From Gemmatimonadota bacterium (lineage in GTDB: Bacteria; JBHIER01; G020348925): DNA of 64,000 nt. Shown one piece after another: positions 11,889-54,994 of the stretch. The notes below the pieces were generated by a model. The model saw nothing but the letters and a program-made list of their open reading frames with translations, did no database searches and was not told where the DNA came from. The position numbers and the translations under genes were made by a program. The number at the start of each line of letters is the position of its first letter. The stretch's first letter is position 1. Location: positions 3,301,688-3,365,687 of the forward strand of contig CP070758.1 in assembly GCA_020348925.1 (NCBI GenBank). Direction: 5' to 3'.

Positions 11889-12811
11889 ATACCTGTGGCC
11901 CGCTGGCATTCATTGAAAAAAAGTGTCAAGGGCGTGTGCTTCACAACGAACCGCTTTCGTCTCACACCTCCTTCGGGATAGGCGGTCCGGCGGATGCCTT
12001 TGTGTGGGCCGACGGCGTGGAGGATGTGGAAATTGTACAGGACGCTGTTTTATCGAACGAGATCCCCTTTCTTGTGATAGGGAACGGAACAAATCTCCTG
12101 TTCCATGATGAGGGATTTCGAGGCGTCGTTCTGCGCCTCGGTCGGCACTTTAAAGGGATCGTAAGTGAAGGGACACGCGTCACAGCAGGAGCTGGGGCAA
12201 ATCTCTCGAAAACGTTGAGCTTTTGTGCCGAACATGATTTGGGAGGTTTCGAATTCGCAGTCGGCATTCCGGGTACTGTGGGTGGTGCGGTGTCGTCCGC
12301 AGCGTGGACGCGATCCGGGGGGATTCGGGATCGACTCTCGCGCGTCACCGCCATGGGGCCCAAGGGAGATGTCGTGACAAAAGATGCACCATCCCTGGGA
12401 AACGAGCATGGAGACCTCGTTCCGGATGGCTGTATTATTACTGAAGTCTCGTTTCAACTTGAGCCTGCGCCTGAAAATGCTATTCGTCTGGAAATGGAAC
12501 GTCTTATGGCCCGTCGCAAACAAACGCAACCGTTGAACAAACGGAGTGCCGGCTGCGTCTTCAGAAATCCGGAACATCAATCTGCCGGTCGGATCATCGA
12601 TGAATGCGGATGTAAGGGGATGAGGGTGGGTGGGGCGGTCGTTTCCGAGAAGCACGCCAATTTCATCATCAACAGCGGTGGGGCGCGATCGGAGGATGTG
12701 CTCGAGTTGATCGAGCGCGTCCGGGAGCGGGTCCACAGCGCGACCGGTGTTCTCCTCGGATTGGAAATCGATGTCGTCGATCCTTGGGGCGGTATGAGGA
12801 GAGATGCGTAG
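11885..12811 (+). CDS. murB: UDP-N-acetylenolpyruvoylglucosamine reductase (divergent)
   Basis: HTSFGIGGPAD, GNGTNLL, GIPGTVGGA, SAGCVFRNP, VSEKHANF; ATG 11885 overlaps murC stop. Confidence 0.9.
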   Translation: MNTCGPLAFIEKKCQGRVLHNEPLSSHTSFGIGGPADAFVWADGVEDVEIVQDAVLSNEIPFLVIGNGTNLLFHDEGFRGVVLRLGRHFKGIVSEGTRVTAGAGANLSKTLSFCAEHDLGGFEFAVGIPGTVGGAVSSAAWTRSGGIRDRLSRVTAMGPKGDVVTKDAPSLGNEHGDLVPDGCIITEVSFQLEPAPENAIRLEMERLMARRKQTQPLNKRSAGCVFRNPEHQSAGRIIDECGCKGMRVGGAVVSEKHANFIINSGGARSEDVLELIERVRERVHSATGVLLGLEIDVVDPWGGMRRDA

Positions 12812-13646
12812 TACGAAAAAAATGTATTTCAATGAGATTGCGGTGAGAGAACCGAGACACGTCCTGCTCGCCCTTATCAAAGCCTTCAACCGGACGACGG
12901 TCGTAGTTACCGTGTTGGGGTTCCTGGCCCTTATGGGCCATCACGTCTACACGTGGGCTCTTCAGACGCCGTTCTTTGAGATCCAAGAGATTCGTGTGCG
13001 GGGACATCATATCATTTCCGAGGAGAGGGCCTTGAGCTTGATTGGGATCGAGGAGGACTGTAATATCTTCCGGTGCGATGTCGATGCGGTGGAGCGGAGG
13101 GTTGCCCAGGATCCTTTTGTGCGAAAGGCGGACGTGAAACGTCGTTTGCCCTCAAAGCTTCTCCTTTCGATCGAGGAGAGAAAGCCCTTGGCCTTTTTGG
13201 CCGATATGATCGGTATGGTCGACGACGAGGGCGTACTGCTTCCACCCATTGCTCCGGAACAGTGGTCCGATCTCCCGCTCTTGACAGGGATTGGGGTAGA
13301 AAAGATCCGCTTTGGGGAGCCGCTTCAGTCTGAGCCGGTAGCGTGGGCCGTCTCTTTTCTCAAGGCCGCGGCCGCATTGAACTCGAACGGAGCTCTTGAA
13401 ATTACCGAGATCGATCTGAGCGATATGGCACATCCGCTTTTGTACGCCGGTGACAGGAGTGTTCCCGTCAGGATTGGGGTGACGGGCTCTCTGTCACAAT
13501 TGACCAGTCTTCCTGTCGTCCTGGCGGATTTAGAGCGGAAGGGGATAGAGGCCGAATATATCGATGTGCGCTTTTCGAATCAGATTCTTGTCAGGCCGAG
13601 AAGATTTACGAACATGGGGCTGGAATCAAAGGCAGTGAAAGGTTGA
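12804..13646 (+). CDS. ftsQ: Cell division protein FtsQ/DivIB
   Basis: Single TM, POTRA-like segment (FEIQEIRVRG...VKRRLPSKL..IEERKP), C-terminal YIDVRF; position before ftsA. Confidence 0.85.
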   Translation: MRSTKKMYFNEIAVREPRHVLLALIKAFNRTTVVVTVLGFLALMGHHVYTWALQTPFFEIQEIRVRGHHIISEERALSLIGIEEDCNIFRCDVDAVERRVAQDPFVRKADVKRRLPSKLLLSIEERKPLAFLADMIGMVDDEGVLLPPIAPEQWSDLPLLTGIGVEKIRFGEPLQSEPVAWAVSFLKAAAALNSNGALEITEIDLSDMAHPLLYAGDRSVPVRIGVTGSLSQLTSLPVVLADLERKGIEAEYIDVRFSNQILVRPRRFTNMGLESKAVKG

Positions 13647-13757
13647 CGCCCAATAATCACACTAAAACTCAAGAAAGGAGAAAATTTCTTTTGATTCCAG
13701 CCCCTGATAAAACGTCTATGGAGAACAGCGAAATGGTTTAAACGTGAACATAAAAAA

Positions 13758-13875
13758 TCTGAGCAGGTGACTGGCCAGGGTTCATTGACAAAACGATAAG
13801 CAAGCCTACCATTCCTGTCACATCACATTCTCTCTCCGTATTTTGTCCCTCTCAAATGGCCATAGCCTGCTCAGA
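13758..13875 (+). ncRNA. Candidate structured RNA motif, copy 1
   Basis: Outer stem TCTGAGCAGG/CCTGCTCAGA, inner TGGCC/GGCCA; shares TGACAAAACGATAAGC and TTGT(T)CCCTCT with the copy at 45800-45903; strand inferred. Confidence 0.6.
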
Positions 13876-13890
13876 GTCCTGACATGCCGT

Positions 13891-13995
13891 TGTTGAGCAG
13901 GTGAGTAGTCGGTGATTGTGACTATTCTACCCGTAACGCTTTGATGTTGAAACAATCGCCATTGTCCCTCTCTCGTGGCGAAAGCCTGCTCAACA
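13891..13995 (+). ncRNA. Candidate structured RNA motif, copy 2
   Basis: Outer stem TGTTGAGCAGG/CCTGCTCAACA, GAGTA/GAAA internal loop, GTC/GGC stem, hairpin GGTGATTGT/ACAATCGCC, TTGTCCCTCT. Confidence 0.6.
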
Positions 13996-14037
13996 CCGCA
14001 TGTTTTCTGCAGTACGGGAGGAGGAACGGTTTCGAGC

Positions 14038-15279
14038 ATGGGGAATGAAAACTCGGTCATTGTGGGTCTCGATATAGGCACGACGAAGATCGGCGTCATT
14101 GTGGCTGAGATCGGTGCCGATGGTGAGGTGCGCATTGTGGGTGTCGGCACGAGCCCTTCGGAAGGGCTCAGGCGCGGTGTCGTGGTCAATGTGGAGAAAA
14201 CGGTCCAGTCGATAAAGACTGCCGTGGCCAGGGCTGAGCGCAGTTCCGGGAAAAAGATTTCGTCCGTCTACGCCGGGATTGCCGGGGACCACATTCGGTC
14301 CATTAACAGCCGGGGTGTTATTGCGGTCTCCAGGGGTGATCATGAGATCACCCCCGGTGATGTGAGACGGGTCATCGACGCTGCCAAGGCCGTGGCCATT
14401 CCCATGGACCGAGAGATTATTCATGTTCTTCCGCAGGGTTACGTCGTGGACGACCAATCCGGTATCAAAGATCCCGTTGGCATGGCCGGAGTGCGATTGG
14501 AAGCGGAGGTCCATATCGTGACAGGGGCGGTCACTTCGGCTCAGAACATATACAACAGTATTAGGAAGGCGGGATTGGAAGTGAAGGATCTCGTGCTCCA
14601 ACCCCTGGCTTCGAGTTACGCTGTCCTGTCTCAAGATGAAATGGAGCTTGGTGTCGGACTGCTGGATATCGGGGGCGGGACGACGGATATCGCTCTCTTC
14701 TTTGAGGGAAGTATCCGACACACGGCCGTCATCGGCTTCGGAGGAAGAAATGTCACCAACGATATTGCCATCGGACTCAGAACGCCGGTGGACAAGGCCG
14801 AGGAGATCAAGATCGAAAAGGGATGCGCCTTACAGACCATGATGGACAAGGATGAGGTCATGGAGGTGGAAAGCACCGGCGGTCGGCCGTCCCGGCAGAT
14901 ATCGCGCAGCGTCCTGTGCAGCGTCATCGAGCCAAGAGTGGAGGAGATCTTCAGTCTGGCGCGCCGAGAGATCAAAAAGTCCGACTACGCGGGCCTTCTG
15001 ACGACCGGTATCGTCATCACCGGAGGATCCTCGTTGATCGAAGGTTCGGTAGAACTGGCCGAGCAGGTCTTCGACCTCCCGGTCAAGCTCGGAGTACCGC
15101 AGGAGATCGGCGAGACAATGGATGAAGTGAAAAGTCCGGTCTTTTCGACGGGAATCGGGCTCATCCATTATGCTCAAAAGCATCGGACGGGCGATAACGG
15201 ATTTTGGGACATCAGTGAGTCGAACCCTTTTGAAAAAATTTTGGAACGTATGAAAGGCTGGTTTCGAGATTTCTTTTAA
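14038..15279 (+). CDS. ftsA: Cell division protein FtsA
   Basis: [38 protein letters not shown] upstream of ATG 14038. Confidence 0.96.
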
Positions 15280-24100: not shown

Positions 24101-25572
24101 CGTCTCCCGGGCTGAACTGGCCGTCACCGTCTCTGTCAGTAAAGAGCAGATCGGATTTCGTAGCCGACAGCACAACGGGAAACCCTGAAATCACAGTGGC
24201 GTCGTCCGCATCCGGCGGAACTGGATCACCGAACTCGTCAACAGCCTGATCGACGATAGCCCTGTTCGTGGCCGAGGCGCAAGCATGATCAGCGTGGAAA
24301 GTGACGTCAACGACCACACTGTCATTCGGAGCCAACGGTCCCAGGTTGTTCCAGGTAAGCACAGAACCATCGTCCCCATTCCACGGCACTGTCGCGCTCA
24401 CTGGCGATATACACATCTCAGGATAATTGTCAGTCAAAGGAAGGAGGGTGATAGTCGTTGTCCCCTCATTGCGGACAGTGATACGGAAGGTTAGATTGGT
24501 GGACACTTGTGCTATCCCACCTGGAGGATCAATGAGTACCTTTGTTACTTGAAGAAGCGTCTCCACAATGTCAACACTTGCCGTGTCGGAGTCGTCCGGT
24601 ACCGGAAAGCCATATTCATCTTTGGCTCCCTCCACACCCGCCGTATCAATCGTCGCACTGCAGACGCTTGTCGCAACGAAATTGACCGTTATCTCAAAGC
24701 ATGAAGTTGGACAGGGGCTCGGATCTAAGGGGCCAAGGTTGTCCCATGTGATGATTCCCGCTACGTGTGCGTCGGGAGGCGGCTCTGCAGAGATAAAAGA
24801 GAGACATCCCGGATCATATGTGTCCAGGAGAGGAAGGGTTGTAATGATCGACGTGCCTGTATTGACAACCGTAATACCGAAGCTGATTGTGTCACCGACT
24901 TGAGCAAAGCCGAGGGACGGATGAATGATATTTTTGTCAATCTGTATCTTTGTCTCCACGAGATTGACTTGGGTAATCCAGGAATCGTCAGGAACCGGTG
25001 TGCCCAACTCGGTTTCGGCTCCCTCAACAGAGACAGTATCCTCCGTGACACCGCACGCCGCAAGGGCCTGAAAGGTCACCTCCACGGTGTCGAACGCCCC
25101 CACTGCCAGGGGACCTCTATTGCTCCAGGTGATGTGACCGGGTACGGCCACATTCTCCGCCGGATCGGCTGAAACGAAACTGAGACAGGCCGGATCATAG
25201 TAATCGTGCACCGGCAGGAGCGTCACCACCGTCGCACCCGTGTTTTCAACCACGAGCCGGAAGATCACCGAATCGCCCACCAAAGCCACTCCGCCAGCAG
25301 GTATGATCAACTCCTTCAGCACATGTATCCCTGACGAATCAATATCAACGAAGGCTGTATCCTGAATGTCCGGAACCAAAAAACCATGCTCATCAATGGT
25401 ACCGCTGACTGTCGCCGTGTCAATGACCGACGGACATGCAGCAAGAGCGGTGAAATTGACCGTCACCGTCGTACTGTCACCCGCAGCCAAGGGGCCAAGA
25501 TTCGCCCAGTTTATGGTGCCGGCCACCACACCCGTCTGGACAGGACTGGCAGAAACAAACGCCAGGCAGACC
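21199..25572 (-). pseudogene. Large secreted protein (DUF11-like repeats, two cohesin-like domains, dockerin-like domain, T9SS-type-A/FlgD-like CTD); 5' end lost in gap; 1-bp frameshift in CTD
   Basis: Frame open up to the gap; repeats of FxIxVxNxG...LPLxDxYDPxCLSFxSA...WxNLGPL; cohesin-like [15 protein letters not shown] segments; dockerin-like YDATFIL...ADVTG...[10 protein letters not shown]; after GY the shifted frame continues [18 protein letters not shown]...MVLMK* (stop 21199-21201). Confidence 0.75.
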
Positions 25573-25672
25573 NNNNNNNNNNNNNNNNNNNNNNNNNNNN
25601 NNNNNNNNNNNNNNNNNNNNNNNNNNNNNNNNNNNNNNNNNNNNNNNNNNNNNNNNNNNNNNNNNNNNNNNN
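25573..25672. other. Assembly gap (100 N)
   Basis: Run of N. Confidence 1.
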
Positions 25673-34078: not shown

Positions 34079-34156
34079 GGTGAGTGTAGCTCAGGTGGCC
34101 AGAGCACCAGGTTGTGGCCCTGGGGGTCGGGGGTTCAAGTCCCCTCACTCACCCCA
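34079..34156 (+). tRNA. tRNA-His(GUG)
   Basis: G-1, acceptor GTGAGTG/CACTCAC, anticodon arm CCAGG-TTGTGGC-CCTGG, GGTTCAAGTCC T-arm, C73, encoded CCA. Confidence 0.97.
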
Positions 34157-42631: not shown

Positions 42632-43786
42632 ATGAAATTGAACATCGAAGGGAAGAGAATTTTTGCGATTACCCTCTTGGTCGTCATCATTTCGTTTCTT
42701 CATTATGTTACCAGCATTCAATCCCCTCATCTCCACGCCATATACGCCCGGGCTTATTATATCCCCATTATCCTGGCAGCCTTCTGGTATAGCTTGAGAG
42801 GCGGGATTGTCGTGTCCGCGGTCGTCGGTCTCATTTATCTGCCCCACGTCATCTTTCAGTGGGGTGGTGGCTTGGGAAATCTGAGTCGGTTTCTGGAGAT
42901 CGTGATGTTCATCGTGGGGGGATTGCTGACAGGTCTTATGGTTGAGCTAGTGGTGGAGCAGAGGAACAAGTATCAAAAGAATGCCCAGGAGCTGGTACGA
43001 TCGTACGAAAAACTGAGGGGGCAGACCGAAAAACTCCTGGAAATGGAGGATCATCTCCGGACTTCTGACCGATTGGCCGTTATGGGGGAACTGAGCGCCA
43101 GTTTGGCCCACGAGGTGAGAAATCCTCTCGGATCGATCAGAGGTACCGTCGATATTCTGAGGAAAGAATTCCCGGCCGGTGGCAAGCACATGGAATTCTT
43201 TAAAATATTGGTGCAGGAGGTCAATCGTCTGAATGAGGTTGTCGAGCGCTATCTCGGACTGGCGAAGCAAAAGCGGCAGAAAATGGTTGAAAAAAACTTA
43301 TGTGATATCGTTCAATCCGTGGTCGATCTCGTCTCCGCAAAGGCTCGCAAGGAAAAGATCGATCTTATTGTTGTGAAACCTGCGGAGACAATTACAGTAT
43401 TCACCGATGAGACGCTTCTGCAACAGGTCTTACTCAATATTCTTCTGAATGCCATGGCCTCAATGGAAGAGGGTGGGCGCATCCTCATCTCCCCTTCACT
43501 CAAGAGAGAAGCCCCGAAGGCAGGAACCTCCCCTCACCCCTACGCTTCAGTGACCGTTTCCGATACGGGCAAGGGGATAAAGGAGGCGGAGATCGATAAC
43601 GTTTTCAAACCTTTCTATACGACGAAGGCCGAGGGAACGGGTCTGGGCTTGGCCATTGCCAAGCGCTCTCTCCAACAGCTCGGTGGAGAAATCGGGCTGG
43701 AGAGTAAGGAGGGAGCCGGAACCTTAGTCACAATTACTCTTCCTTCAGCGGAGGGAAAGCGGAAGAATCTATGGGATCAATCTTAG
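42632..43786 (+). CDS. Membrane sensor histidine kinase
   Basis: N-terminal TMs; AHEVRNPL, NILLNA, DTGKG, PFYTTK.EGTGLGL. Confidence 0.94.
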   Translation: MKLNIEGKRIFAITLLVVIISFLHYVTSIQSPHLHAIYARAYYIPIILAAFWYSLRGGIVVSAVVGLIYLPHVIFQWGGGLGNLSRFLEIVMFIVGGLLTGLMVELVVEQRNKYQKNAQELVRSYEKLRGQTEKLLEMEDHLRTSDRLAVMGELSASLAHEVRNPLGSIRGTVDILRKEFPAGGKHMEFFKILVQEVNRLNEVVERYLGLAKQKRQKMVEKNLCDIVQSVVDLVSAKARKEKIDLIVVKPAETITVFTDETLLQQVLLNILLNAMASMEEGGRILISPSLKREAPKAGTSPHPYASVTVSDTGKGIKEAEIDNVFKPFYTTKAEGTGLGLAIAKRSLQQLGGEIGLESKEGAGTLVTITLPSAEGKRKNLWDQS

Positions 43787-45114
43787 TCATTGACGACGAC
43801 GAAAGTTTCATCCGGGTTCTGGAGCATATGTTGATTGAAGACGGCCATCGGGTGGCGACGGCCAGTGACGGTGAACGCGGACTCAAGATCTTCAAGGGCG
43901 GTTCTTTCGACATTGTACTCACGGATCTGATGATGCCCAAGCTCGACGGCATGGCGGTCCTCAAGGAGGTGAGACGAATCGATCGAGAGGCGATCGTCAT
44001 TTTCATCACTGCCCATGGGACCGTGGAGAATGCAGTTGAAGCCTGTCGCCTCGGAGCTACCGATTATATCACGAAACCATTCAGCCATGAGCAGTTGAGT
44101 TTCGTCGTGGAGAAGGCGATCAAGGTGCGGGAATTGCTCTCGGAGAATATTCGCCTGCAAACTGAATTGTCTGAGAAGTATCAATTCAAGAATATTGTGG
44201 GGCGAAGCGCCCGGATGGAAGAGGTCTTTCGGCTGGCAGGCCAGGTAGCAGGGAGCGATGCCACAGTTCTTCTACTGGGAGAAAGCGGCACCGGAAAAGA
44301 ACTCATTGCACGGGCGATCCATTTTAACAGTCCGAGGGAGAAAAGACGTTTTATGGCCATCAACTGTGCGTCCATTCCGGACAATCTGATGGAGAGTGAA
44401 CTCTTCGGCCATGTGAAAGGTGCTTTCACCGGAGCGATGAAGGATAAAAAAGGTAAGTTTGAGTTGGCTGATGGCGGGACCATCTTCCTCGATGAAGTGG
44501 CCGATTTAAAGAGCGACCTCCAGGCGAAACTTCTCCGTTTTTTACAGGAGCGAGAGTTTGAACCTGTCGGTGCTACCGAGCCGATACGAGTCGATGTCCG
44601 TATCATCGCAGCAACCAACAAGGATCTTGAAAAATTAATCCGCGAGGAGAAGTTTCGCGAGGATCTCTATTACAGGCTGAGCGTTGTACCCGTCGTGCTC
44701 CCACCTTTGAGAGCGAGGAAGGACGATATTCCCCTGCTCGTCGATCATTTCCTGAGGAAATACGGAGGGGAAAAATCCTTCACCGTCGCTGACGATGCCA
44801 TGAAGATTCTTTACGAGTTCGACTGGCCGGGCAACGTCCGGGAACTGGAAAACGTGGTGGAACGGGCCGTCGTGTTGGCCGGAGGCGGGGTGATAACGTC
44901 CGATTTACTCCCCTCATCACTTCGGACAGGGCGTTTCGAGGGAAAAGAATTCGAGGTCACCACAGAGGGTCTCTCCATGGCCGAAGTTGAAAGGCAGACT
45001 CTTCTTGCAGCCTTGGAGCGCACGGGCTGGAACAAGACCAAAGCGGCGGAGTCACTGGAGATTCCGCGACATGTTTTGATGTATAAAATGAAGAAATTGG
45101 GACTCCAAGGCTAA
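43771..45114 (+). CDS. Sigma54-dependent NtrC-family response regulator
   Basis: Receiver (VIDDD, TDLMMP, KPF), GESGTGKE, GAFTGA, Fis HTH. Confidence 0.95.
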   Translation: MGSILVIDDDESFIRVLEHMLIEDGHRVATASDGERGLKIFKGGSFDIVLTDLMMPKLDGMAVLKEVRRIDREAIVIFITAHGTVENAVEACRLGATDYITKPFSHEQLSFVVEKAIKVRELLSENIRLQTELSEKYQFKNIVGRSARMEEVFRLAGQVAGSDATVLLLGESGTGKELIARAIHFNSPREKRRFMAINCASIPDNLMESELFGHVKGAFTGAMKDKKGKFELADGGTIFLDEVADLKSDLQAKLLRFLQEREFEPVGATEPIRVDVRIIAATNKDLEKLIREEKFREDLYYRLSVVPVVLPPLRARKDDIPLLVDHFLRKYGGEKSFTVADDAMKILYEFDWPGNVRELENVVERAVVLAGGGVITSDLLPSSLRTGRFEGKEFEVTTEGLSMAEVERQTLLAALERTGWNKTKAAESLEIPRHVLMYKMKKLGLQG

Positions 45115-45689: not shown

Positions 45690-45704
45690 TGGCACGAAAT
45701 TTGT
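45690..45704 (+). promoter_or_regulatory. Sigma54-like promoter 1
   Basis: TGGCACG-AAAT-TTGT (one mismatch to TGGCACG-N4-TTGC). Confidence 0.6.
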
Positions 45705-45799
45705 TTATTAAAGGGGCAGTTGTATGACGAACTCATTTATGCTCCTTTCCTTTCAGTCGATTTGTTTGAAAGGGAAGCCGAAAGATAGATTGAAAGACA

Positions 45800-45903
45800 A
45801 CCGCAGGCGAGTAGCCGGGTTATGACAAAACGATAAGCTAACCTACCTATTCGTCCTACCAAATTTTCCGCTATTGTTCCCTCTTTTGGTGAAAGCCTGC
45901 GGT
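45800..45903 (+). ncRNA. Candidate structured RNA motif, copy 3
   Basis: ACCGCAGGC/GCCTGCGGT, GAGTA/GAAA loop, GCC/GGT, GGGTTA/TAACCT hairpin with loop TGACAAAACGATAAGC, TTGTTCCCTCT. Confidence 0.65.
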
Positions 45904-45942
45904 GTTTTTCAAACCTTCAGGTTAAAACCTGGTTCTTCCTCC

Positions 45943-45986
45943 TGCAGAATAATCGACACCGAATGAAGATTATTCTGCATTTTTTT
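45943..45986 (+). terminator. Intrinsic terminator
   Basis: Perfect 12-bp stem TGCAGAATAATC/GATTATTCTGCA followed by T7. Confidence 0.75.
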
Positions 45987-46095
45987 GCTCTTCAATATAC
46001 GACAGAAAGAAACGTCACCTTCGAGAGGTTTGTAACCCTTTGGGAATAAGCCGTTAGCGAGAAACGCGAACGGCTTATTTTTTTGGTACCGAAAA

Positions 46096-46110
46096 TGGCA
46101 CGGAACTTGC
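46096..46110 (+). promoter_or_regulatory. Sigma54 promoter 2, upstream of heavy-metal operon
   Basis: TGGCACG-GAAC-TTGC, perfect -24/-12 consensus. Confidence 0.8.
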
Positions 46111-46618: not shown

Positions 46619-47329
46619 ATGAAAAGGACATTTCTTGTATTGAGTATGATAGCAATGGGTGCGCTGGTATTTGGATCTTCTGGTGAAGCTCAGATGCAGC
46701 ATGAGCACCCTCGTGGCGAGAAGATTGAAAAGACGCAGGGGGATGAGGTCGTTTGTCCTGTGACGGACAGGGTCATGAAGCGGGCGGAAGCCCCGGCGTC
46801 CTATACATTGTACTTCGCATCCGAGGCAGCCATGGATGCTTTTCTTAAAAATCCTGCCAAATTTCTTACGGCTGCGTGTCCGGTGATGGGTGGTGAAGCC
46901 AACAAGCTTACGGCGACCTACAGCAATTACGACGGTGTTGCTTATCATTTCTGCTGCGCCGGGTGCAAGGAGATATTTGAAAAAGAGCCGAAGAAATATA
47001 TCGGGAAAGCACAGAAGAAGTCGGAGATCCATGGCCATTCTGAAATGAATTTTGGGGCAGCGACTGGAAGCGATGTGATGGGTAACACTGGCTATATGGG
47101 GTGTAGCAGTACCGGTTCTGAGAAGGATCAAAAAGGACACTCTTGCGGAATGTCTCACAAATCTGATGCCACGAAAGGTTCTGCGGGCATGGCTGATCCG
47201 GTGTGCGGGATGAAGGTTTCCTCGAAGGACGGTGTTCACTCAGAATTTCACGGTAAGGAGTACTATTTCTGTTCGACTCAGTGTCAGGAGAAGTTCGAGA
47301 AGGCGCCGGAGGATTATATCAAGAGGTAA
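46619..47329 (+). CDS. Exported multi-YHS-domain heavy-metal-binding protein
   Basis: Signal peptide; CPV...YFASE, CPVMG...YHFCC.GC...P.KY, DPVCGM...YYFCS..C...PEDY. Confidence 0.88.
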   Translation: MKRTFLVLSMIAMGALVFGSSGEAQMQHEHPRGEKIEKTQGDEVVCPVTDRVMKRAEAPASYTLYFASEAAMDAFLKNPAKFLTAACPVMGGEANKLTATYSNYDGVAYHFCCAGCKEIFEKEPKKYIGKAQKKSEIHGHSEMNFGAATGSDVMGNTGYMGCSSTGSEKDQKGHSCGMSHKSDATKGSAGMADPVCGMKVSSKDGVHSEFHGKEYYFCSTQCQEKFEKAPEDYIKR

Positions 47330-52617: not shown

Positions 52618-54894
52618 ATGGCGCAAAAAAACACCGGCTGGGAAAATAAGAAAATGGGACCGCTTGACCGTCTCATTGGTTTTTGCCTTGAGAACAAGAT
52701 CGTCGTGGCCCTTGTCATTCTCTTTGTGGTTACCTGGGGGATCATGGTGGCGCCATTCGACTGGAATTTCTGGGGGCTTCAGCGCAGCCCGGTGCCGGTG
52801 GATGCCATTCCTGATATCGGAGAAAATCAGCAGATCGTCTTCACCGAATGGATGGGTCGCTCCCCTCAGGATGTGGAGGATCAGATCACCTATCCCCTCA
52901 CCGTCTCGCTTCTTGGTATCCCGGGTGTGAAGACGGTGCGAAGTTTCTCCTTCTTCGGCTTCTCGAGCATCTACATCATCTTCAAGGATGACGTCGATTT
53001 CTACTGGTCCCGTTCCCGCGTTCTGGAAAAGCTTGGCAGCTTACCCGCGGGCACCCTTCCGGAGGGTGTCCAACCCACCATGGGACCGGACGCCACGGCC
53101 CTGGGACAGGTTTTCTGGTACACGCTGGAAGGGCGGGACGAGGACGGCAAGCCGACAGGAGGCTGGGATCTCAATGAGTTGAGGAGCATCCAGGACTGGT
53201 ATGTCCGCTATGCTCTCCTTTCTGCCGAGGGGGTCAGCGAGGTGGCCTCGGTCGGCGGATTTGTCCAGGAGTACCAGATCGATGTGAATCCCGATGCCAT
53301 GAGGGCAAACCGGGTGACACTGGGCGAGATCTTTAATGCGGTGCGCATGTCCAATGTTGATGTCGGAGCCCGCACCATCGAGGTCAATAATGTCGAATAC
53401 GTCATCCGGGGCTTGGGCTTTATAGAAAACATCGGTGATATTGAAAAGACGGTCGTCAAAGTAAACGCCAATATCCCGATTTCTATCAAGGATGTGGCCA
53501 CGGTGAGCCTGGGGCCGGCCTTGAGGCGGGGTGCCCTGGACAAGGAGGGAACCGAGGTCGTCGGAGGTGTTGTGGTCACCCGGTACGGCGAAAATCCCCT
53601 GGCCACCATCGGCAATGTCAAAAAGAAGATTGAGGAGATCTCCCCCGGACTGCCGAGGAGAGTGCTGCCTGACGGAAGAATATCCCAGGTCAGGATTGTA
53701 CCCTTTTACGACCGCACCGGTCTTATCTATGAAACCCTCGGCACGCTCAACACCGCCCTGACGGATGAGATCCTGGTGACGATCATCGTGGTCATCATTA
53801 TGGTCATGCATCTCGGGAGTTCTTTTCTCATCTCAGGTATTCTTCCCCTGGCCGTTCTCATGTGTTTCATCGGCATGAAGCTTTTCGGGGTGGACGCCAA
53901 TATCGTCGCCCTTTCCGGAATAGCCATCGCCATCGGGACGATCGTGGATATGGGTGTTGTCGTCAGTGAAAACATCATGAAACACCTCAAGGCGGCATTC
54001 CCGGAGGAAAACCGTCTTGAGGTCGTCCGCCGCGGCGCCTCGGAGGTCGGGGGTGCCGTGGTAACGGCAATTTCAACGACGGTGGTCAGCTTCCTGCCCG
54101 TTTTCACTATGGAAGCTGCGGAAGGGAAACTATTCAAACCACTGGCCTATACCAAGACCTTCGCCCTCATTGCTTCGGTTATTGTAGCCCTGACAATCAT
54201 TCCGTCCTTTGCTCACATCATATTCGCCGGCAGGGTCAACGGTAAAAAGCTCCGGTCAATCCTGTCCGGATTGTTGGTAGTCGCCGGGATCATCATAAGC
54301 ATCTTTCTCTCGTGGTGGGTGGGTTTTATTGTCATCCTGGTGGGAGGCTATCCCTTCTTTAAACAGAATCTGTCGGGGAAGATTCTCAAAGTTATTCCAT
54401 ACGGCGTGAATGGACTGGCTGTCATTGTTGTGGGGATTCTCCTTGCCAGGCATTGGGTGCCAATCGGTCCGGAAAAAGGACTGTTGCTGAATCTCATATT
54501 CGTGGCCCTCTTCATAGGTGGTCTCCTTATCTTTCTTCAGGTCTTTAAGCGGTTCTATGAAAGGATTCTGCGCTGGTGCCTTGTGCATAAGGTGCTCTTT
54601 CTCTCGATACCTACACTGCTGGTCATTCTGGGGGGGACCATCTGGCTGGGTTTTGACCGGGTGTTTGGATTCTTACCCGAGCGGATCAGATCAATTCCTC
54701 TGGTAACGACCGTCAGTCATACATTTCCCGGATTGGGTAAGGAGTTTATGCCTCCCCTGGATGAGGGTTCGTATCTGTTGATGCCGACGACCATGCCCCA
54801 TGCCTCCATTGGCGAATGTCTGGACGTGCTTCAGAAGCAGGATATGGCGATTCGGGCTATTCCTGAAGTGGAGAGTGTCGTGGGGAAGATAGGA
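52618..54894 (+). CDS. cusA: CusA/CzcA-family heavy-metal RND transporter (truncated by gap)
   Basis: DAIPDIGENQ, VEDQITYP, GPDATALG, GIAIAIG..VD, EGKLFKPLAYTKT, EFMPPLDEG. Confidence 0.92.
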
Positions 54895-54994
54895 NNNNNN
54901 NNNNNNNNNNNNNNNNNNNNNNNNNNNNNNNNNNNNNNNNNNNNNNNNNNNNNNNNNNNNNNNNNNNNNNNNNNNNNNNNNNNNNNNNNNNNNN
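54895..54994. other. Assembly gap (100 N placeholder)
   Basis: Run of N; both flanking genes lack hundreds of codons. Confidence 1.

Follow-up and report, generated by a model that had tools for sequence, protein, structure and literature searches.

What are the three similar segments that lie between genes in a 64,000-nucleotide (nt) stretch of a Gemmatimonadota genome, two of them in tandem before ftsA and the third 32 kb away? The stretch (GenBank assembly GCA_020348925.1, contig CP070758.1, positions 3,301,688–3,365,687, forward strand; hereafter the window) had previously been read from its letters alone, and this sequence-only reading proposed a repeated structured RNA with covarying stems, either a noncoding RNA or a cis-regulator. 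Comparative analysis establishes that the segments belong to a family of small RNAs (sRNAs) specific to this lineage, with at least 11 paralogues in the genome and cores of about 85–130 nt, and defines the fold, conservation, strand and synteny of this family together with its promoter and terminator sequences. As to function, the preferred reading, to which we give a probability of about 0.5, is that these RNAs would pair in trans with Shine-Dalgarno (SD) sequences, by analogy with known riboregulators.

A lineage-specific RNA family with a covarying fold

The three segments (copies 1–3, Table 1) have the common architecture first noticed by eye. A read-out of the sequence confirmed the outer stem of each, covarying flanks included: TCTGAGCAGG (13758–13767) pairs with CCTGCTCAGA (13866–13875) in copy 1, TGTTGAGCAGG (13891–13901) with CCTGCTCAACA (13985–13995) in copy 2, and ACCGCAGG (45800–45807) with CCTGCGGT (45896–45903) in copy 3. 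As had also been noted, copies 1 and 3 share the loop TGACAAAACGATAAGC letter for letter, TTGT(T)CCCTCT occurs in all three segments, and GAGTA faces GAAA in copies 2 and 3; copy 1 reads GACTG/CATA instead. The inner stems read as described, but the inner pairing had to be corrected to a hairpin, P3, formed by GGGUU/AACCU. A MAFFT alignment of the three copies has a mean column identity of 71% and 44 invariant columns, and their single-RNA folds beat dinucleotide shuffles (z = −2.31, −2.95 and −3.34 for copies 1, 2 and 3, respectively).

The count of three proved too low. With an iterated nhmmer profile, 11 copies are detected in the source genome at E ≤ 3.2e-16, the next match having E = 2.1, and the covariance model R1, built from these 11 copies with the pairings P1, P2 and P3 included, returns the same 11 at 65.6–112.6 bits, followed by a match of 22.9 bits. 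Since the source "contig" consists of about 205 pieces joined by 100-N spacers and the assembly is 96.3% complete, 11 is a lower bound. A covariance-model search of this genome and its relatives, which the sequence-only reading had suggested, extended the family to 26 homologues. Nine of them are in G001, the one other genome of the same family among 60 other genomes searched, and six are on four of the five contigs found in a single metagenome scan (two each on L127 and L131, one each on L128 and L129); with the 11 source-genome copies they form the 26-sequence set, aligned to R1, on which the fold was examined. In the other 59 genomes R1 gave two weak single matches (26–28 bits) that were taken as chance. 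An exact gapped pattern run on the species-genome collection recovered the assembly of G001 and two look-alikes that have none of the other features, a second exact pattern recovered G001 alone again, and a pattern scan of viral contigs found nothing.

The FtsA protein of the source genome is 86% identical to that of G001 and at most 68% identical to all others, the next-best matches coming from KSB1, Zixibacteria, Gemmatimonadota and similar assemblies. This pattern places the host in a lineage related to the Fibrobacteres–Chlorobi–Bacteroidetes (FCB) group, and the source organism is an uncultured sediment bacterium of that lineage.

Table 1. Copies 1–3 and associated features, in window coordinates (R1, covariance model of the family; L128 and L129, metagenome contigs with family copies)
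Feature	Position	Strand	Remarks
ftsQ	12804–13646	+	Pfam POTRA_1 (FtsQ-type), E = 1.4e-13; upstream of tandem pair
Copy 1	13758–13875	+	GACU/AUA internal-loop subtype; R1 105.5 bits
Copy 2	13891–13995	+	Loop-E subtype; R1 65.6 bits
ftsA	14038–15279	+	Pfam FtsA and SHS2_FTSA; homologues align from residue 1; downstream of tandem pair
NtrC-type sigma-54 activator	43771–45114	+	Sigma54_activat (E = 8e-73), Response_reg, HTH_8
Sigma-54-type −24/−12 promoter-like site	45690–45704	+	TGGCACGAAATTTGT; about 110 nt upstream of copy 3; T, not C, at −12
Copy-3 leader hairpin	45745–45777	+	CUUUCCUUUC/GAAAGGGAAG; predicted in the fold of 45712–45990; both arms kept in L128
Copy 3	45800–45903	+	Loop-E subtype with P3; R1 102.6 bits
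Small hairpin and CU-rich single strand	45917–45942	+	Hairpin 45917–45932; UUCUUCCUCC at 45933–45942
Copy-3 intrinsic terminator	45943–45986	+	12-bp stem, then U7; conserved in L128 and L129

The consensus begins with a stalk (P1) of 9–14 base pairs (bp), from which an internal loop leads to a short P2. Then come an optional P3 with the loop UGACAAAACGAUAAGC and a CU-rich, G-poor stretch ending in a UCCCUCU-type sequence that adjoins P2. The stalk, which is GC-rich and sometimes reaches about 20 bp, encloses a G-poor, C/U-rich loop of 70–90 nt. On the 26 homologues the claim of covarying stems was borne out: 94.2% of the cells are paired, as against 30.5–43.2% when the 3' partners are slid by 1–3 columns and 85.9 ± 1.0% after column shuffling, and none of 500 shuffles reached the observed pairing or covariation score. 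Double changes affect 26 cells, compared with 8.0 ± 2.4 in the shuffles, and again none of 500 was as high. Within P1, 19 copies have A-U at pair 13/185 and 6 have G-C, and pairs 8–10 alternate among U-A, A-U, G-C and C-G. Five additional pairs at the outer end of the stalk all show double changes, at 54–69% pairing, so that 9 of the 14 pairs of the extended stalk show them; thus, the stalk of many copies is 12–14 bp long, with bulges, and is formed in part by A-rich 5' and U-rich 3' flanks. Despite differences in length and sequence between copies, P2 keeps its complementarity (UGGCCA/UGGCCA, UAGCCG/CGGCUA, GCGG/CCGC, GCCUGAAG/CUUCAGGU), and P3 is 90% paired, with alternation of U-A/U-G and of G-C/G-U/A-U. 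P3 is missing in copy L113 and replaced in the four copy-2 orthologues. The stretch from P3 to P2 contains 8.7% G, 36% C, 37% U and 18% A; it is unpaired in the consensus and carries UCCCUC in 18 of the 26 copies, about once per RNA. A pseudoknot between GACAA of the P3 loop and UUGUC was tried and rejected, as it is 83.7% paired without double changes and its central C-G pair is broken in 8 of 21 copies.

G-U pairs, which would read as C-A mismatches on the opposite strand, are abundant: U-G is found at 16/182 in 14 of 26 copies, and G-U at 22/177 in 8 of 26 and at 30/116 in 15 of 22. Furthermore, R1 scores 16.5 bits on the reverse strand compared with 104–113 bits forward. Both observations identify the plus strand of the window as the RNA strand.

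The internal loop between P1 and P2 had been equated with the bulged-G (loop E/sarcin-ricin) motif. In 18 of the 26 copies AGUA does lie opposite GAA, flanked by a covarying U/C-G pair (16/182). The motif is not universal, however: seven copies, copy 1 among them, have GACU/AUA, which turns two non-canonical pairs into Watson–Crick ones, and one copy has neither sequence. With eight copies devoid of the loop-E sequence, this three-dimensional motif would not be essential to the family.

Conservation follows the motif and not its surroundings. Core identity between orthologues is 83–98% in 9 of 11 pairs (64–66% for copy 2 and group G), whereas their 120-nt flanks are 47–76% identical, except where the flank is the tandem neighbour. 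At five loci the flanking genes are syntenic between the source genome and G001, with proteins 50–83% identical. Paralogues share a mean column identity of 60%. The contrast between core and flank indicates that the sequence of the unpaired loop, and not just that of the stems, is constrained.

Copy 1 is built of P1, a 6-bp P2 (UGGCCA/UGGCCA), the P3 hairpin with its consensus loop, a CU-rich linker and UUGUCCCUCU, and its core is 83–91% identical to those of the orthologues in G001, L127 and L131. The interior of copy 2 varies across species, with the stalk and AUUGUCCCUCUCU kept; in the source genome this stalk can be extended to about 20 bp (about 13881–14002) and is followed by UUUUCU. The stalk of copy 3 reaches about 45790–45910 through its A-rich and U-rich flanks, and its core is 97–98% identical to the copies on L128 and L129.

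Promoters, terminators and sigma-54 activators

Copy 3 has predicted transcription signals of its own. Its sigma-54-type site corresponds to a perfect TGGCACGGGGTTTGCA at −112 in the L128 orthologue. After the motif, GAUUCUUCCUCCUGC is conserved in L128 and L129, and the terminator stem shows a compensatory change in L129 (AUAAUC/GAUUAU to AUAGUC/GACUAU). The predicted 279-nt transcript, comprising leader hairpin, motif, small hairpin, UUCUUCCUCC and terminator, folds with z = −6.13. Two genes upstream, on the same strand, lies the NtrC-type activator with its receiver, AAA+ and HTH_8 domains.

Such signals are found across the family. Group C has TGGCAC-N5-TTG(C/T) together with a covarying terminator. 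Group F, which pairs the 915k copy of the source genome with its orthologue in G001, has (A/C)GGCAC-N5-TTGC(A/G) 19–20 nt ahead of P1 in both genera, with a U-run immediately after P1. In group E, a sigma-70 promoter sequence, TTGCAT-17-TATATT, is kept across a diverged spacer, and the terminator of group D covaries (AGCCGCUG...CAGCGGCU versus GGCCGCUG...CAGCGGCC). Like copy 3, copy 675k is followed by a separate canonical terminator.

The source genome encodes RpoN and 24 strong sigma-54 activators, and it contains 16 strict TGGCAC-N5-TTGC sites, of which 7 are intergenic. Activator genes adjoin copy 3, the copy at 1403k and copy L115 of G001, where a GAF-type activator is followed by TGGCACGCTTTTCGCA at −86 and then by the motif. 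By sequence, the combination expected of a sigma-54-dependent sRNA gene (−24 GG/−12 GC, RpoN and a nearby activator) is present in groups C and F and at copy L115; the scan did not find it at the ftsQ–ftsA pair or the remaining copies. Two further loci adjoin genes for response regulators or cNMP-binding proteins, and the other neighbours are functionally unrelated. The upstream gene is on the same strand at 6 of 10 source-genome loci, and three copies are antisense to both neighbouring genes. Together with the promoters and terminators, the antisense copies speak for independent RNA genes outside the ftsQ–ftsA junction.

Two observations concern the surroundings of copy 3 and of a close paralogue. 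Just past the copy-3 terminator, a perfect sigma-54 promoter-like sequence, TGGCACGGAACTTGC (46096–46110, plus strand), precedes open reading frames (ORFs) leading to a YHS-domain protein (46619–47329). A YHS gene also adjoins the motif in L128, and the copy-3 RNA and the YHS operon may share the neighbouring activator. The paralogue, copy 2973k (L019, about 2625–2700; G000:C1, about 2973825), is followed by GAGGAGG and the ATG of a small hydrophobic ORF (MKARLILNILILLVV...) instead of the module of hairpin, CU-tract and terminator. The two paralogues therefore differ in their 3' context.

A tandem pair in the ftsQ–ftsA junction

The placement of copies 1 and 2 was called unusual from the outset, and comparison with other genomes agrees. 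The spacer between ftsQ and ftsA measures 391 nt in the source genome and 392 nt in G001, whereas at 64 ftsA loci of other lineages (3 kb upstream considered) the preceding long ORF ends at a median distance of 31 nt, and no more than 81 nt away in 58 of them. R1 detected no motif at 79 other ftsA loci (best E = 0.94). Four organisms, represented by the source genome, G001, L127 and L131, have the same order: FtsQ stop, copy 1 (GACU/AUA), about 15 nt, copy 2 (loop E), ftsA start. Copy 2 orthologues thus follow copy 1 in all of them, with FtsQ itself only 37–57% identical. DNA contigs from a second study span 13665–14046 with zero differences, so the tandem arrangement is not an assembly artefact; contigs of four runs were identical in sequence and yielded no natural variants, and a search for RNA runs matching 13000–15000 returned none. 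Showing no recognisable promoter or terminator of its own, the pair is probably transcribed with the division and cell wall (dcw) operon.

Other features of this junction were noted. A small ORF between ftsQ and copy 1 was considered and rejected, its frames and start codons being unconserved among the four organisms. Between the ftsQ stop and copy 1, a 12-mer, GATTCCAGCCCC (13693–13704), preceded by AAAGGAG at about 13676–13682, is nearly invariant in the four organisms (GATTCCGGCCCC in G001, GATTCCAGTCCC in L131) despite the diverged spacer; it matches neither a conserved reading frame nor a conserved start codon. The SD sequence of ftsA lies 13 nt before the ATG, an unusually long distance, in the source genome (14016–14040), G001 and L131.

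Known RNAs, mode of action and alternatives

At gathering score, Rfam 15, with Chlorobi-1 and other FCB motifs among its families, has no match in the window other than one tRNA. Flavo-1, to which the motif had been likened, is an orphan structured RNA of the FCB group with E-loop-like internal loops. Being an orphan structured RNA of that group is what the two have in common; the likeness was not borne out, as three permissive Rfam scans (E ≤ 10, 12 copies) gave scattered chance matches, none recurring and none to Flavo-1. DUF3268 RNA (RF02966) matched copy 2 on the minus, and hence wrong, strand only, with 19.4 bits against a threshold of 65.3 (E = 0.18), and BTncRNA_FopS (RF04319) matched 45902–45989, outside the motif, with 20.1 bits against a gathering score of 56 (E = 0.69). 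With only two genomes of the lineage in the collection, a prior description of the family seems unlikely, although the literature was searched for functional analogues and not for the family itself.

RsaE and RNAIII are sRNAs with UCCC loops, and CrcZ of Pseudomonas titrates Hfq/Crc and carries repeated A-rich Hfq-binding motifs. The closest working analogue is LhrC. LhrC1–5 of Listeria monocytogenes are multicopy and G-poor, depend on a two-component system, bind SD sequences through UCCC motifs in their loops and do not require Hfq (PMC4132741). The present family likewise has several paralogues per genome and G-poor, CU-rich RNAs with UCCC-type motifs in loops or single strands. It has no sequence or Rfam relationship to LhrC, which is described there as two stem-loops and a terminator, whereas the family has a closing stalk with a loop-E-like loop around one very large loop, sigma-54 promoter sequences at some copies, and two copies inside the dcw operon. 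The crcZ gene is reported to lie directly downstream of the activator gene cbrB, with its own RpoN promoter, and the RNA can also be processed from a read-through mRNA (PMC5113210). Copy 3 and copy L115 share this layout of activator, promoter and RNA with CrcZ/CrcY, but their loops are CU-rich without a strongly repeated motif, Hfq was not detected in the genome, and there is no homology. Bacteroides thetaiotaomicron, an FCB-group bacterium without Hfq, offers a further comparison: FopS/GibS form a 14-member sRNA family that acts near start codons to repress translation and has the RRM-1 protein RbpB as a binding partner (PMC11697453). The source genome also has a multicopy sRNA family, no detectable Hfq and one RRM_1 protein, encoded at G000:C1:1272647–1272856; the architecture of FopS, in which a terminator hairpin comes after a single-stranded 5' seed, differs from the one found here.

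How the family RNAs would be transcribed and processed, and how and with which targets they would pair, we infer from sequence. In the style of LhrC or CrcZ, they may act as trans-acting anti-SD riboregulators, the exposed CU-rich sequences pairing with purine-rich ribosome-binding sites and blocking translation initiation. Target preference would come from the part of the loop that differs between paralogues, with the stalk serving to protect the RNA. Paralogues would answer different signals, several through sigma-54 promoters next to activator genes and one through a sigma-70 promoter, and the ftsQ–ftsA pair would be released by cleavage at the stalks or be active within the mRNA. Consistent with this, the exposed UCCCUCU and CCUACC tracts are complementary to purine-rich ribosome-binding sites, and many predicted starts bear AGAGGGA-type sequences. 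The hallmark of anti-SD sRNAs, UCCC or CCUC in a G-poor single strand, is present as TCCCTC in 18 of 26 copies, in a stretch with 8.7% G. Neither Hfq nor CsrA was detected in the genome.

Several results weigh against this reading. Gene starts were taken from a rough in-house caller (4148 start regions), and the predicted duplex energies of six conserved loop segments with these regions beat those with coding interiors but did not beat shuffled seeds; for the copy 3 segment, the fraction at or below −12 kcal/mol was 0.377, versus 0.435 for shuffled sequence. The pairing signal at start regions therefore reflects composition only. The start regions of ftsA, ftsZ and ftsQ were not outliers: ranked against all start regions for pairing with copy 2, ftsA came only within the best 8.5% and ftsZ at 44%. 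Genome-wide, complements of the P3 loop with up to three mismatches were the copies themselves and scattered matches with 2–3 mismatches; a shared protein partner would explain this loop better. At the tandem pair, neither a sigma-70 nor a sigma-54 promoter was recognised, nor a terminator in a scan of 13300–14300. In addition, an intrinsic terminator requires a GC stem, a loop of 3–8 nt and a U-tract, and P1, enclosing about 100 nt, does not qualify; where no separate terminator follows a copy, the position of its 3' end is uncertain.

Could the repeats owe their structure to something other than an RNA product? In a miniature inverted-repeat transposable element (MITE) or Correia-like mobile element, the stems would be terminal inverted repeats around an outward promoter and not RNA helices. 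The copies are indeed multicopy and intergenic with inverted ends, Neisseria Correia elements carry promoters, and copy 1 contains TTGACA-16-TACCAT, which agrees with the sigma-70 consensus at 10 of 12 positions. This internal promoter was rejected, as its −10-like hexamer is not kept in the other copies. Target-site duplications, which the sequence-only reading had named as a sign of a MITE, were not seen on inspection of the flanks of the 11 copies, where the flanks are complementary (A-rich and U-rich) and not direct repeats. The absence of duplications, the synteny and the contrast between core and flank rule out a recently mobile element. The orthologues moreover occupy syntenic loci in two genera, paralogues are far more diverged than most orthologous cores, the stem arms change jointly (GAGCAGG/CCTGCTC, CCGCAGG/CCTGCGG, GCGGG/CCCGC), the G-U pairs are strand-specific, and the pattern was not found in viral contigs, making a mobile element extremely improbable. 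Termination signals are a very unlikely explanation as well, whether P1 and its U-run are taken as bidirectional intrinsic terminators or the loop as a Rho-loading (rut) site. The A-rich and U-rich flanks that lengthen the stalk, the six or more U within 8 nt after P1 in 11 of 26 copies, and the position of several copies at the ends of convergent genes would suit the former, and rut sites are C-rich and G-poor, as is the loop (36% C, 8.7% G). Yet terminators require neither 83–98% conservation over about 100 nt nor P3 nor a loop-E-like motif, the scan of the tandem pair found none, copies 3 and 675k have separate canonical terminators, and three copies have no same-strand upstream gene to terminate.

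The remaining alternatives accept an RNA and assign it another role. A cis-acting mRNA element, such as a stalk for processing or stability, an attenuator or an anti-SD clamp, would concern above all the ftsQ–ftsA pair and would set the ratio of FtsQ to FtsA/FtsZ; we consider it quite unlikely. The pair is kept in place in four organisms within a tightly packed operon that shows no promoter or terminator there, 6 of 10 loci have a same-strand upstream gene, the roughly 20-bp stalk of copy 2 runs into UUUUCU, and its loop is predicted to pair with the ftsA SD region at −18.5 kcal/mol. On the other hand, the U-tract is absent in G001, L127 and L131, the ftsA pairing ranks only within the best 8.5% of all start regions, the SD sequences differ among the four organisms, downstream gene functions are unrelated, and other copies have their own promoters and terminators. 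With three copies antisense to both neighbours, a purely cis-regulatory role fits poorly, though it may apply to the ftsQ–ftsA pair; of the two options first offered for the repeats, the stems and homologues uphold the multicopy structured noncoding RNA. Loop-E motifs are frequent protein-binding sites, and the family might instead be a protein-binding sponge or scaffold, in which the stalk, the P3 loop and the CCU/UCC tracts titrate the RRM protein or ribosomal protein S1. This appears rather unlikely, but it would account for a 16-nt P3 loop that is almost invariant across groups A, C, D and E and has no genomic complement. The layout of activator gene, sigma-54 promoter and RNA matches that of crcZ downstream of cbrB (PMC5113210), and the pairing of missing Hfq and CsrA with one RRM_1 protein recalls the Hfq-less Bacteroides, whose RRM-1 protein binds single-stranded regions of the 14-member family (PMC11697453). 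A sponge would be expected to repeat its binding site, and no short motif occurs three or more times per RNA (UCCCUC about once, ACCUA in 12 of 26 copies); P3 is dispensable, and none of the copies has a gene for a candidate protein linked to it.

Anti-SD pairing could also be part of a wider scheme, which is doubtful at present: a central post-transcriptional hub working without Hfq or CsrA, in which paralogues are wired to different sensors, among them several sigma-54 activators, a sigma-70 promoter and the dcw operon, the anti-SD loop sits on a loop-E stalk that docks the RRM protein or the 30S subunit, and the ftsQ–ftsA copies are cut from the dcw mRNA, coupling transcription of division genes to the control of translation initiation.

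To our knowledge, riboregulation has hardly been described beyond a few cultured phyla. The family described here comes from an FCB-related lineage with two species-level genomes in the collection searched and no detectable Hfq or CsrA, and it joins a distinctive fold (stalk, loop-E-like motif and very large CU-rich loop) with sigma-54 promoter sequences and a conserved tandem insertion in an otherwise compact ftsQ–ftsA junction. If the RNAs act by anti-SD pairing or as sponges, they would show that the multicopy "sibling sRNA" strategy arose here independently and would add a family to Rfam, and RNA might connect the cell-division operon to translation control. As the organism is uncultured, metatranscriptomes or heterologous systems will be required to follow these possibilities.

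Some minor features of the assembly complete the description. Its 16S rRNA is a fragment (model positions 54–354; G000:C1:1988162–1988584) beside a 100-N spacer, the 3' end being missing from the fragmented assembly. Two such spacers fall inside the window, at about 25572–25671 and 54894–54993, and the tRNA gene that is its sole above-threshold Rfam match (61.6 bits) lies at 34080–34153.

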